A stretch of 64,000 nucleotides of DNA. Source: Eledone cirrhosa (Eukaryota). The DNA lies in NCBI GenBank assembly GCA_964016885.1, contig OZ024741.1, positions 129,642,001 through 129,706,000 of the forward strand, read 5' to 3'. A program made the translations under genes and the position numbers. Every line of letters starts with the position of its first letter. Position 1 is the stretch's first letter. A model generated the notes under the pieces. The model did no database searches, was not told the origin of the DNA, and saw nothing but the letters and a program-made list of their open reading frames with translations. Of the stretch, positions 3,034 to 54,295 are shown piece by piece.

Positions 3034-6000
3034 GTAGGAGGTGAGTTTTATTGTAGTACAATAAAGCAATGCAGATATCGGATAAGAAGCACTCTACAGT
3101 TTGTGGGACTGGAGTATGCATAATATAAGATCAAAAGATGGTTAAAGGAGTTCAATATATTTTATTATGCGCATTTCAAAAACAAATATCATCAAACAAT
3201 AATATTTGTGTTTTCATCAGATAAAACAGGAGAACATGATATGAAGGCTAAAAAAACACTTGTTGATAGTGCAGTTTTAAATCAACATATGAAAAGTGGT
3301 TTTAGATTGATGTGTGATATTGGGAAAAATATTTTATTTAGAGAGGGGGGGAGAGAAAAGGATGAAAAGGGAAGGAGATGAGAGGGAGAGATGGGTGATA
3401 GAGAGAAAGAGATAGTTTTTATAACAGAGAGGAGATATATTTTATATAGAGGGGTTGAAAACCGTTGGAAGATATTGTATAAATTAAAAATTTTGAAAAT
3501 TAACGAAGGGAGGATATGTGCGAGGAAAAAATATATTATATTTAGGGAGGGGTGGGGGTGGAAAGGATGAAAAAAAGGGGAGGAGATGAGAGTGAGGGTG
3601 GAAAGGGAGAGATGGGTGATAGAGAGAAAGAGATAGTTTTTATAACTGAGAAAAAGATATAATGTTTTAATATAGAGAGGTTGGGAACCGTTGGAAGATA
3701 ATGTATAAATTAAAGGAATTTGAAAATTAACGAAGGGAAATTATGTATGGAGATAGAGAGAAAAAATAACGAAGGGAGATTATGTATGGAGATAGAGAGA
3801 AAAAAAAAAAAAAATAATAATTGTGGGTGAATATTCAAAAGGAGAAATGTAGGAATCTTAAAATTAGCAAAGAGAAAATGTTTATGTATAGGATTTGAGA
3901 AAAATAATGTGAAGTTAAAGTTTTTATATTGAATTCATATGTATTAATAATGAGTTCGTTGATGGGGAGAAAAAAATAATAATAAATTAAGGATGAAATT
4001 GAGATTAAAAAGATTTATGATAGAGAGAAAAAATAATAATGATTGCGGATGAATACTCAAAATGTCAAAAACAAATGTTATTGTTTTACGAAGAGATATA
4101 ATGAGGGTGATGAGTAAACGGGTATTATAGAGTGTATAATGCCCTTTAAAGTAAGGTAGATGGGTATATTTTAAAGAATATATGAGTATATATTAAAAAA
4201 ATATATAATAATAAATTAAGGATGAAATTGAGATTAAAAAGATTTATGATAGAGGGAAAAAAATAATAATGATTGCGGATGAATATTCAAAATGTCAAAA
4301 ACAAATGTTATTGTTTTACGAGAAGATAGGATGAGGTAAATGAATAAACGAGTACTATAGAGTGTATAATGCCCTTTAAAGTAAGGTAGATGGGTATATT
4401 TTAAAGAGGTGTATGTATATGTGCCTTTGAGAAAAGATTCTAAATTGATAAAGAATTGAATATTAACTGTATACTTTGTGAAAAGTTCTATGGAATTTAT
4501 GCAGGCAGATGGAAAACAAATCCGAGCGTCTATTTATTATGGATTCTAGGTTAGAGATAATGGTAAATTTTTCATTTAGGCAGAGATTACAGATTTTAGA
4601 TAGAGAACTGTTCAAGTACGAGGATGCAGAAGAAATCTTTTTCCAAAAGATGTTATATTTAATGTTTTTGTCTTTTAAGGACCATATGAGTTCTGAGAGA
4701 GCAGTGTTAGTTCTTTTAAGTTTGTATTTGAAAGATGAATGATGATTATAGAGACGAGCTTTAAAAGAGGTGGAAGTGGAGCCAAAATAGGTGAAGGAGT
4801 TGGTGCTAGTTATAATTTTACATTCATAAATTAAGTTTTTATCGAGGCAATGGTTGTTGAGAGGACATTTATTTTTAATGCGGCAGTTGCAATTAGAGAG
4901 ATTATTAATGAGTGATCTAGTGTTATCTATAGAAGGAATTGGATTGGAGAAGTTGTTTGCGATAGGAATAATAGGAATAATAGTTTCTTGATTTAGAGTT
5001 GGATTATGAACATTTAGCGAAGTTGTGTTTGACGTTGCATTTGGGTTTACAGAAGTTAGCCTAGGGTTTACAATGACGTCAGGAGTACTATTATTGTTAT
5101 TATGAGATTCAATATTGGAAGGAAGAGATTTAGTATTTAATATTTTGTTGTTGTGTTTAGAAATGATGTTGGAAATATTGGAGGATGTAGAATACGAAAA
5201 TTTAATGGTGTGTTTGTTAAATATTTTACTATAGATATGTGAGGGAGGGAAGCATTTATTTAAGGCACTAAAAAATAATTTAGGAATATTGTTATTAATA
5301 GAGATGGAGAAAGGAGCATTATACCAGATTATGTTTTTGTATCTAGGTCTTTTATTAAAATTATTGGAATGGTTATGATTAAATATTCTACTGTAAGTTT
5401 TCCTAGAATTTGTTTCTTTATTATATTTGATTTTATCTGGATAGCCAGCTTTAGAAAGTGCGTTATTGTAGTAATTGGCGTTAGCATCAAAGATGTTTTT
5501 ATTAGAAGATATGTTAGATATTCTATTTCCAATATTATTAACTATAGCATTCTTGATATTGGTAGGATGGTTAGATTTAAAGTTAACATAATTAAGATTC
5601 TCATTGTTTTTATGGTAAGGGTAATATAGGCCAGTGTCAAGATTAAGAGATACATCCAAGAAATTAGCTAGTTTGGTACTATTATCAAATTCAATTTTTA
5701 GGTTATGTTGGTTAAAGAGATTACGTATATTGTTCTTAATAATATTAAGTTTAACTATATTGCAATTTAGGATAGTAAAGAGTCCATCGTCACGATAAAT
5801 TCCACCGCGAAGTTGAGGAATTTTCCGACTCAAAGAGTTCAAAATGAAGATACCAATTAAATCAGTCAATTGGGATGAATCGGATGCTCCCATTGTGATG
5901 TCGAAGTTGTTAGAGGTATCGGCTCTGGTCCAATATTCGTTGTTGAACTCTAGGATGGTTTTACGTGCGGTGAGGATGATGCGAAGTTCATCTGTGGTGA

Positions 6001-6372
6001 TGTCAGAATATTTAAGTGCGAAAGATAGAGCATTATTGAGAAGTGAAGGCGAAATGGAGGAATAGTAGCTGGCAATATCGAATTGAATAAATTTTAGTTT
6101 GTTTTTATTATCCAATTTGTTGAACCAGCCAATCACTTCAGAAGTACCAAACCATAAATTTAGGTTTAAAGAAGAGCAAGTAGAACTAACCTGTGGGATA
6201 ATCCTATCCAAGATGGCTTTACTAACAACCCCCAGATCAGATTTAGAGGGGGCGATTAATCTAACAGGTAGTTCAGTGCGAAAATTGTTTTTGTGATCCT
6301 TGAGATTTATCCTCGGAGTTCTTGGGAGGAATGGTTCGGTCTTTTTTTCAATGCCAAGTTTTGACATAATCT
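3034..6372 (-). mobile_element. Penelope-like retroelement, 5'-truncated, with long 3' end (probably Nematis-type)
   Basis: RT motifs FDIASYYSSI, FDITMGASDSSQ and YRDDG; CNCR..CPL..C linker; GIY-YIG-like LIY..YFGST..FKARLYNH; CNLC..E..CLH; 1.4-kb AT-rich 3' UTR with an HHR; abuts (TA)n. Confidence 0.93.
3160..3226 (-). ncRNA. Type I hammerhead ribozyme (mirror copy)
   Basis: Reverse complement of 9500-9566. Confidence 0.85.
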
Positions 6373-6373
6373 C
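4463..6373 (-). CDS. PLE reverse transcriptase + GIY-YIG endonuclease (N-terminally truncated, uninterrupted)
   Basis: ORF track 4463..6433. The first ~20 aa are read-through from the opposite arm; element-like sequence starts at EIMSKLGIEKKTE. Confidence 0.85.
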   Translation of the reverse strand, partial: EIMSKLGIEKKTEPFLPRTPRINLKDHKNNFRTELPVRLIAPSKSDLGVVSKAILDRIIPQVSSTCSSLNLNLWFGTSEVIGWFNKLDNKNKLKFIQFDIASYYSSISPSLLNNALSFALKYSDITTDELRIILTARKTILEFNNEYWTRADTSNNFDITMGASDSSQLTDLIGIFILNSLSRKIPQLRGGIYRDDGLFTILNCNIVKLNIIKNNIRNLFNQHNLKIEFDNSTKLANFLDVSLNLDTGLYYPYHKNNENLNYVNFKSNHPTNIKNAIVNNIGNRISNISSNKNIFDANANYYNNALSKAGYPDKIKYNKETNSRKTYSRIFNHNHSNNFNKRPRYKNIIWYNAPFSISINNNIPKLFFSALNKCFPPSHIYSKIFNKHTIKFSYSTSSNISNIISKHNNKILNTKSLPSNIESHNNNNSTPDVIVNPRLTSVNPNATSNTTSLNVHNPTLNQETIIPIIPIANNFSNPIPSIDNTRSLINNLSNCNCRIKNKCPLNNHCLDKNLIYECKIITSTNSFTYFGSTSTSFKARLYNHHSSFKYKLKRTNTALSELIWSLKDKNIKYNIFWKKISSASSYLNSSLSKICNLCLNEKFTIISNLESIINRRSDLFSICLHKFHRTFHKVYS

Positions 6374-53370: not shown

Positions 53371-53908
53371 AATTATTATACAACAAAGTTGGAACAATAT
53401 CTACGTGCAAACGTATTGATTCAGCAATTAATATTATTAACATCAAAAAGTCACACAAACAAAAAAATCATCGATTCTCATATCATGCAATGGCCATAGT
53501 TTTTATTATCTAACATCATATTATCTAACAATATCCAAATAGGAGAGGACAAAACATATATGTATATATGTATATATAAATATATATATTCATATATATA
53601 TATATATAATAGAATATAAAAGAAAAACGAACACAGATATATACATATATGTGCTCAAATTACGATTTGAACACATATATGTATATATCTGTGTTCGTTT
53701 CTCTTTTATATTCTATTATAATATACGGCTCGGAAATATCTCTTTTTTAGAGCTATTTGGTTGTAAGAGACTATTTTGAGTTCCTAACTCAATATATATA
53801 CCTTTTATATATATATATATATATATATATATATATATATATATATATATATATATATATATATATATATATATATATAAGTGGCTACACAACAGTTAGT
53901 TCACCATA

Positions 53909-53948
53909 CCGAGAACAATTGTTTCACCTTAGCGGATCCTCAGCTCGG
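53909..53948 (-). ncRNA. Type I hammerhead ribozyme
   Basis: Minus strand reads ccgag-CTGAGGA-tccgctaaggt-GAAA-caattg-TT-ctcgg. Confidence 0.8.
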
Positions 53949-54295
53949 AATGGATTCGCTAAGGTGAAACAATTGTTCTCGGTATGGTGAACTAACTGTT
54001 GTGTAACCACTTCTACCTAACTCGTCCCATGAACTGAGTGCTCTACCACTACGGATATTACCTTCCAGTGTTCCACCACTATATATATATATATATATAT
54101 ATATATATATATATATATATATATATATATATATATATATATATATATATATACAGGGTTTACGAAAGTCACTGGTATTATTTCAGCGATCTCAGGGAGA
54201 GGAGAGAGAGAGAGAGAGAGAGAGAGAGAGAGAGAGAGAGAGAGAGAGAGAGAGAGAGAGAGAGAGAGAGAGACTAATGTTTCTGGGTGAACAGT

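Follow-up and report, generated by a model that had tools for sequence, protein, structure and literature searches.

Small structured RNAs, namely, the telomerase template boundary element, hepadnavirus epsilon, and the R2 3' untranslated region (UTR), fix where copying starts or stops, and L1 twin priming uses both target strands. In this study, we describe a bulged stem-loop of Hydra-clade Penelope-like elements (PLEs), found beside the two kinds of insertion end in a 64,000-nt stretch of the Eledone cirrhosa genome (GenBank assembly GCA_964016885.1, contig OZ024741.1, positions 129,642,001 to 129,706,000, forward strand; hereafter, the window). Its likeness to telomerase, epsilon, R2, and L1 is in layout, and sequence homology is not claimed; in contrast to those systems, two copies of one signal lie here 3' of two putative internal starts, and both arms of an insertion copy the same sequence.

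Tails, inverted copies, TA targeting, and hammerheads of PLEs are already known from the consulted parts of PMC8557442, PMC3846280, and PMC4209133. According to the parts of Craig et al. (2021, PMC8557442) that we used, elements of the Hydra clade resemble ours in the motifs RW[KR], DK[TS], CxCX5C, CxxC, and CxH, one open reading frame (ORF), a hammerhead, (TA)n targets, and inverted copies with a one-sided tail, but their tails measure 30 to 40 nt, compared with 68 to 92 nt here. In PAc, the Poseidon element of Anolis carolinensis (Frangieh et al. 2024, PMC11167929), reverse transcription starts internally at two sites corresponding to the tail ends, both target strands are cut and extended, and RNA 3' of the starts is required. 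PAc is thus similar to the system proposed here in its two starts, its AT-rich target, and its use of both strands, and its dimer is predicted. However, it belongs to another clade, an AC-rich stem-loop with no repeated motif is named at its start site, and the start site is reported to share no homology with the cut DNA (PMC11167929), whereas the ends described below match TA by 1 to 6 nt.

We found no description of the hairpin motif in the literature searched, outside which lay subscription papers, Repbase notes, figures, and the PAc GenBank file. The word "hairpin" is absent from the main texts of PMC8557442, PMC3846280, and PMC4209133 and from the supplement of the first, and "stem-loop" is absent from PMC8557442, its supplement, and PMC4209133.

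Two hairpins and two insertion ends

A first-pass annotation of the window had placed one RCTC...GAGY hairpin at the integration boundary of each of eight families, which we number F1 to F8 in its order. All eight stems were present where it had located them, and the ends it cited for sister copies were real, but the accompanying statement that these ends precede (TA)n did not extend to the end at 29952, after which there is no such run. The eight stems did not occupy one equivalent position either: those at 3115, 17087, 54020, 33592, and 13375 (F1 to F5) are copies of an upstream hairpin (HP1), and those at 17717, 33855, and 24850 (F6 to F8) are copies of a downstream hairpin (HP2). Instead of a single hairpin per element, there are two, with the HP1s of the last three families at 17627, 33776, and 24781. 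A distance of 55 to 92 nt separates the two copies, both of which follow the hammerhead and precede the start codon; the element is ordered as follows: ORF, 3' UTR, hammerhead, short end, HP1, long end, HP2, ATG.

As a motif, the hairpin takes the form RCTC-Y...R-(2-nt bulge)-GAGY-RC, a bulged stem-loop whose conserved unit consists of a four-pair core, a fifth pair, and a 2-nt (sometimes 1-nt) 3' bulge, followed by RC. The hairpin spacer ranges from 6 to ~60 nt, with the asymmetric bulge and covarying inner pairs kept. While the conserved hairpin is real, the bare RCTC-N-GAGY pattern by which it had been defined is unspecific, with 47 matches in the window at 3- to 22-nt spacers; the fifth pair, the bulge, and RC are needed in addition, and the meaning of the bare pattern comes from its position. 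A model of the motif gave 61 matches per Mb in this genome at an E value of 0.5. Among the best 150 of 222 Rfam matches of the window, none reached the gathering score or described these hairpins; these were microsatellite-driven microRNA matches, all subthreshold.

BLAST searches with the families against ~1 Mb elsewhere in the genome revealed two sharp 3' ends per family. In F1 to F5, the two ends flank HP1; in F6 and F8, the hairpin cited originally follows the downstream end and a second GCTC...GAGC follows the upstream end, and F7 has a second stem too. We then mapped junctions in a random sample of 109 10-kb stretches (1.09 Mb) at fixed positions outside the window in the 3.0-Gb genome, using references that span both hairpins and defining the end zone as −18 to +2 nt of HP1 or HP2. 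Of 142 family matches, 24 lacked a TA run at the end and 118 had one. As many as 109 of these 118 junctions fell within the end zones, which make up 21% of the possible end positions; the short site accounted for 57 junctions, the long site for 52, and other positions for 9, with modes at −6 to −9 nt (F7 and F8 contributed one junction each). These sequence data support the proposal that the families share a cis element associated with the junction. The hairpin that marks an end never lies inside the copy that it delimits, and HP1-HP2 spacing in the E. cirrhosa families (68 to 92 nt) equals tail length, family by family.

The TA microhomology suggested for these sites was likewise present. Junctions share 1 to 6 nt with (TA)n, with at least 2 nt shared in 14 of 16 modal junctions compared to a background of 23%. 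TA matches of at least 3 nt occur at 93 sites in the references, 25 of them in the used zones; since the other 68 equally good matches lie outside, microhomology alone does not choose the site.

The two ends are used together. Head-to-head pairs without an intervening TA run in the random sample comprised 28 short-plus-long pairs, no short-plus-short or long-plus-long pairs, and 4 with an unclassed end. The window (8 pairs) and targeted loci (44 pairs) supplied 52 more short-plus-long pairs and no like pairs, along with 8 unclassed. Moreover, among 30 long-end copies of F2, all 19 detectable partner arms stop at the short site. An assembly artifact behind the palindromes was rejected, as the arms of an insertion terminate at two distinct sites that are specific to the family.

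A hairpin for every end would require a second one in F1 to F5, just beyond the long end, which only read-through copies could reveal. We searched the genome for patterns composed of the long end plus RCTC within 14 nt, without GAG. The patterns matched 295 times for F1, 74 for F2, 520 for F4 (overlapping counts), 149 for F5, and 5 for F3, with 0 to 1 match for controls. GAGC was nevertheless present downstream, at the spacing of a hairpin, in 10 of 12 F1, 7 of 8 F2, and 6 of 8 F4 loci. In F1, 8 nt separate the long end from HP2, which appears solely in read-through copies at other genomic loci (L131 to L142), while HP2 of F5 is a compensated GCAC/GTGC stem. HP2 is therefore canonical in three families (F1, F2, and F4) and a compensated variant in F5.

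Reach and covariation of the motif

We assembled an outside set of 84 loci from metagenomes and contaminated metagenome-assembled genomes (MAGs), which formed 67 clusters, 37 of them including 170 nt or more of sequence ahead of the ORF. Within the 170 nt that precede the ORF, 33 of these 37 families have one or more bulged hairpins (two in 17 and one in 16), compared to 14 of 37 reverse complements, 11 of 363 ORF windows, and 30 of 1,110 shuffles, in line with the expectation that the motif be more frequent than in shuffled sequence. Among families with fewer than two hairpins, a hammerhead lies upstream in 6 of 20, and most of these have a variant second stem by eye, one of them GCAC/GTGC. 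Outside junction rows fell within −8 to +6 nt of a hairpin in 21 of 25 cases (two rows are the same junction). No relative was found in IMG/VR. Seven contigs of bacterial MAGs (L268 to L274) encode Hydra-clade PLE proteins, which probably represent animal host contamination.

In the outside two-hairpin families, the hairpins are 55 to 72 nt apart and the ORF match starts 37 to 74 nt after HP2. That position would also suit hairpins that serve the 5' leader (ORF translation control, hammerhead folding, or packaging) and adjoin the ends only via nearby TA-rich sequence, and TAT or ATA does occur within 8 nt upstream of 36 of 50 hairpins, versus 163 of 777 in the background. Such a role is very improbable in our judgment, given the 68 of 93 TA matches outside the used zones, the retention of both hairpins and both ends by ORF-less units, and the family-by-family agreement of tail length with hairpin spacing.

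Covariation, anticipated for a functional stem, was evaluated on the fifth pair in hairpins chosen without regard to their inner pairs. In 53 of 57 hairpins, base 5 forms a pair with the base located three positions before GAG (C-G in 37 and T-A in 14), while the same pairing at other offsets occurred in 1, 4, 11, and 19, so that the 2-nt bulge is fixed. Fisher's test, which ignores kinship, gave a P value of 9e-11, and at least four two-sided changes of this pair map onto a 19-tip tree. Across 52 aligned hairpins, 91% of cells pair, a value reached in 0 of 500 shuffles (rows were chosen with the descriptor). The A-T/G-C change of the first pair, previously presented as covariation, does exist; however, the five A-T families form one clade (support, 0.96) in a FastTree tree of 43 reverse transcriptases (RTs) gathered in this analysis, without named reference proteins, so the change probably arose once and the replicated covariation is that of the fifth pair.

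These features also bear on a reading at the DNA level, in which the endonuclease would recognize the motif in a longer-than-unit DNA intermediate, cut just upstream, and trim the ends. The invariant CTC/GAG core is what a recognition site would show, the tail is ascribed to endonuclease-mediated resolution in the consulted part of PMC8557442, and the Drosophila virilis endonuclease needs the tail in DNA, as cited in PMC11167929. Nevertheless, spacers of 6 to ~60 nt with a kept bulge and covarying inner pairs suit a single-stranded fold rather than a duplex site, and the ends show microhomology with the target; we consider this reading unlikely.

In the PMC8557442 files used, four of six published Hydra consensuses have the hairpin by eye: Hydra-1_Ajap has two before its ATG, Hydra-2_Amil and Hydra-2_Ajap have one at the 3' end, and Hydra-1_Crog has variants; Hydra-1_Obim and Hydra-1_Amil were not counted as showing it. 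In several Hydra hammerheads of supplemental file S2, as far as we used that file (PMC8557442), stem III itself reads ACTC-N-GAGT, the letters of the hairpin core; alternative pairing or a common origin is possible.

A motif-blind screen of inverted insertions yielded 36 tail clusters, in 18 of which a loose hairpin lies close to the short end (one is probably spurious). The loose-hairpin test fires on 128 of 4,184 random stretches and 59 of 4,150 shuffles, and the F6 hairpin escaped it through truncation. The largest motif-free cluster is part of a different PLE clade. In this genome, an abundant non-Hydra PLE family (window 25388-25530; loci L036 and L299 to L316) shows the short-plus-long inverted layout with a 58- to 60-nt tail, a hammerhead ~235 nt upstream, and two Cys in the GIY-YIG core, but no RCTC hairpin was found at its tail, contrary to the idea that the motif is general to PLEs. 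A GCTC...GAGC after its long end (L036) was rejected as its hairpin, being nonrecurrent, with 10 heterogeneous matches genome-wide. Separately, in families whose tails measure 130 to 190 nt (L031, L056, L103, L053, and L071), the stem of the hairpin motif encloses a 50- to 70-nt inner domain. Altogether, the paired cis element is real, clade-wide, and apparently undescribed, in a known class of retroelement.

Elements carrying the hairpins

F1, a 5'-truncated Hydra-clade element, occupies 3034..9603 between two (TA)n runs as an inverted insertion in head-to-head arrangement, whose 99.8% identical arms end at the long site at 3034 (minus) and at the short site at ~9603 (plus). Its 5'-truncated ORF (6365..8263, plus) encodes an RT and, C-terminally, a GIY-YIG with CxCX5C, CxxC, and CxH, with a mirror copy at 4463-6454 (minus). 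HP1 lies at 3091..3115 (minus), and the hammerhead core and stem II lie at 9506..9555 (plus), with a mirror copy at 3220 (minus). The 6.5-kb palindrome at 3123-9603 has a 19-nt spacer and a 630-amino-acid (aa) frame in each arm. F2 is an inverted insertion at 16713..17169 (short end, 16713; long end, 17169), with hammerhead cores at 16981 (plus) and 16811 (minus) and HP1 at 17087..17105 (plus). The F3 insertion, also inverted, spans 53880..54079 (short end, 53880; long end, 54079), with an intact hammerhead core at 53943 (minus) and HP1, with a 1-nt bulge, at 54020..54039 (plus).

F4 is represented by an inverted mini-insertion with one short and one long end (33477..33663; HP1 at 33592..33615, plus), further HP1 copies at 18385-18408 (plus), 27542-27565 (minus), and 31940-31963 (minus), and a 5'-truncated, interrupted F4-type ORF with its 3' UTR (27852..29952, plus) that ends at the short site 29952 with no TA after it. 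A hammerhead-shaped region of this high-copy family at 29845-29940 (plus) has the stems and a longer, altered core. A tandem array elsewhere (L176, G000:C1:437199501-437209500) holds three near-identical 3,531-bp F4 units with uninterrupted ORFs, which suggests recent activity; one such frame, of 717 aa, spans L176:956-3106. F5 has HP1 at 13375..13393 (plus), with a hammerhead core at 13309 and a long end at 13436, and forms an inverted mini-insertion at 26405..26575 (HP1 at 26514-26532). A ninth family has HP1 at 53728..53753 (plus) within an inverted insertion (53609-53805) and a sister copy at 34913-34938 (minus).

In all five of F1 to F5, the ORF begins shortly after HP2. Uninterrupted ORFs of 713 to 717 aa occur in F4 and F5 and long ORFs occur in F1 to F3; the F2 and F4 units are 3.5 to 3.7 kb long. 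The N-terminal RWK-type motif is RWR in F2 to F5 (the F1 window copy is truncated before it) and is present in 38 of 38 outside relatives; the DKG-to-DKT change appears as SDKT in F2 to F5 and as DK[TS] in 38 of 38 relatives. CxCX5C, CxxC, and CxH around GIY-YIG are found in F1, F4, and F5 and in 36 to 38 of the 38 relatives; the F2 and F3 frames examined end before this region. Endonucleases of the Hydra clade lack a CCHH motif; by eye, the GIY-YIG core has one Cys in F1 and F4 and two widely spaced Cys in F5. Canonical hammerhead cores are present in F1, F2, F3, and F5, and F4 has hammerhead stems with a deviant core. Pfam left the Hydra RT unmatched and weakly matched GIY-YIG in F5. The predicted structure of the F4 protein (pLDDT, 89.6) has TERT as its best match (E, 2.8e-8; TM, 0.33 to 0.39).

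F6, F7, and F8 are short units, each with a hammerhead and both hairpins, in tandem at many loci. The F6 insertion (17205..17976) of a 356-nt noncoding unit has its long end at 17205 (minus arm) and its short end at ~17976 (plus arm), HP1 with a long inner loop at 17627..17672 (plus), and HP2 at 17717..17732 (plus), after which the ~25 initial codons of a Hydra-type ORF follow at 17755. A hammerhead-shaped region of this high-copy family at 17553-17600 (plus) has the deviant core CAGAAGA. The F7 insertion (33717..34306) of a 459-nt unit contains a hammerhead core at 34007, HP1 at 33776-33797 and 34235-34256, and HP2 with a 1-nt bulge at 33855..33872 (plus). F8, a 511-nt unit inserted at 24683..25357 (the minus arm has its short end at ~24683, and the long end is at ~25357), has a hammerhead core at 25003, HP1 at 24781-24806 and 25292-25317, and HP2 at 24850..24864 (plus); HP2 of a relative lies at 27131-27146 (minus). 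By tblastn, F6 to F8 contain no coding sequence but the ~25 N-terminal Hydra codons in F6, which mark F6 as a deletion derivative. In addition, a GCTC...GAGC stem at 33046-33058 (minus), ~190 nt upstream of a hammerhead core at 32854 (minus), is perhaps HP2 of another noncoding unit.

The first-pass annotation called its families PLE/retrozyme-like and suggested that nonautonomous ribozyme units had kept the motif to parasitize the PLE machinery. Retention of the motif holds for F6 to F8, short ORF-less tandem units with a hammerhead; as the sources used in part describe retrozymes (nonautonomous hammerhead retroelements), the two are alike in being short, ORF-less, hammerhead bearing, (partially) tandem, and helper needing. 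F1 to F5 differ from them in being autonomous: their protein-coding capacity rules out retrozymes, and they are ordinary Hydra-clade elements.

Two further features of the window lie apart from these families. A second PLE ORF type at 22626-24692 (minus), which we take to be Neptune-like from its motif, has RVT_1 and GIY-YIG matches and is interrupted by the TA run that hosts the F8 unit. A C-type lectin domain exon at 46578-46790 (minus; Pfam Lectin_C, E 3.6e-7) adjoins a 1.6-kb TGG-rich repeat.

Proposed role in reverse transcription

A polymerase that travels 3' to 5' along the sense RNA would have the marking hairpin at its rear, always just beyond the copy, and the tail ends of PAc are starts (PMC11167929); for these reasons, we read the hairpin as a docking site that sets the start. 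The positions of hairpins and ends make it probable that each hairpin docks one RT on the RNA and sets a putative copying start, one per target strand. In this model, the RT, probably as a pair, would bind both hairpins of a read-through (tandem) transcript, and the protein would nick both strands of the (TA)n target. Each target 3' end would pair with UA/AU just 5' of its hairpin and prime cDNA 6 to 9 nt upstream. Joining of the two cDNAs at their far ends would give a head-to-head insertion whose arm difference is the HP1-HP2 distance, i.e., the tail, and failure of one cDNA would give a plain insertion with either end. Noncoding units would travel by keeping the hammerhead, HP1, and HP2.

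The original proposal left open whether the hairpin sets a start or a stop. Hairpins acting as stop signals, like telomerase RNA template boundaries, would halt copying of an antisense template or fold-back on the first cDNA. Self-priming on an antisense template is argued in the consulted part of PMC3846280, the predicted F4 fold is closest to TERT, and fold-back suits both the near-equal arms of 40 of 68 mapped pairs and the palindrome at 3034-9603 with its 19-nt spacer. It does not, however, account for a short arm that reaches >30 nt further 5' than the long arm (24 of 68 pairs), whose short end is not a simple fold-back of the long arm, or for the pairs in which the long arm falls short of the short site altogether (5 of 68). 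All copies with a long end read through HP1; constant 3' ends beside variable 5' ends, together with the TA microhomology, agree with priming; and on sense RNA, tail ends map to starts, not stops (PMC11167929). Arm lengths and the PAc starts therefore favor a start, and a stop signal appears improbable. The middle of the 40 near-symmetric pairs may be formed by fold-back or by a shared RNA 5' end.

Several observations weigh against paired docking hairpins. In those 40 of 68 pairs, the end points of the two arms are no more than 30 nt apart, and the near-perfect 6.5-kb palindrome is also explicable by fold-back. Isolated hairpins fold weakly (z, −0.2 to −2.0; 12 sequences); in the same 12 sequences, the bulged form is the minimum-energy fold only in F2 HP1, F7 HP2, and the F5 variant HP2, and the 5' arm of HP1 is predicted to be able to pair with the 3' arm of HP2. 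Three of the four core pairs are invariant in the alignment, whose rows were chosen with the descriptor, and strand evidence is thin (10 G-U type versus 4 A-C type). HP2 of F3 rests on one read-through copy with an imperfect, noncanonical stem. No hairpin was present in 4 of the 37 outside families and a single one was present in 16, although many flanks are not element sequence, and half of the 36 de novo tail clusters lack the motif.

In the PAc template as printed, one CUC/GAG stem can be made out by eye at +126 to +139, 8 to 15 nt after the main start at +111 to +118. The chance of coincidence is estimated at 2 to 7%, and we treat this possibly fortuitous stem as a lead. A bolder, speculative extension, which we hold to be possible but doubtful, is that the two-hairpin cassette is a general Penelope address code: a dimer would grip two CUC/GAG hairpins on one RNA and prime both target strands at once, spacing would set tail length, the PAc stem would be the same signal, and the ~150-nt cassette would suffice to write any upstream cargo into (TA)n.

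PLEs are the closest mobile relatives of telomerase, and their template choice and inverted insertions with one-sided tails have been a question for two decades; the sole in vitro study placed two internal starts but did not locate the signal. A covarying motif that recurs at a constant distance from each of the two ends, and is conserved in a clade that spans several animal phyla, gives exact mutations to test. The two-hairpin reading would explain tail length and the strict short-plus-long pairing. Furthermore, the motif shows what nonautonomous units must keep and provides an annotation marker for these elements.

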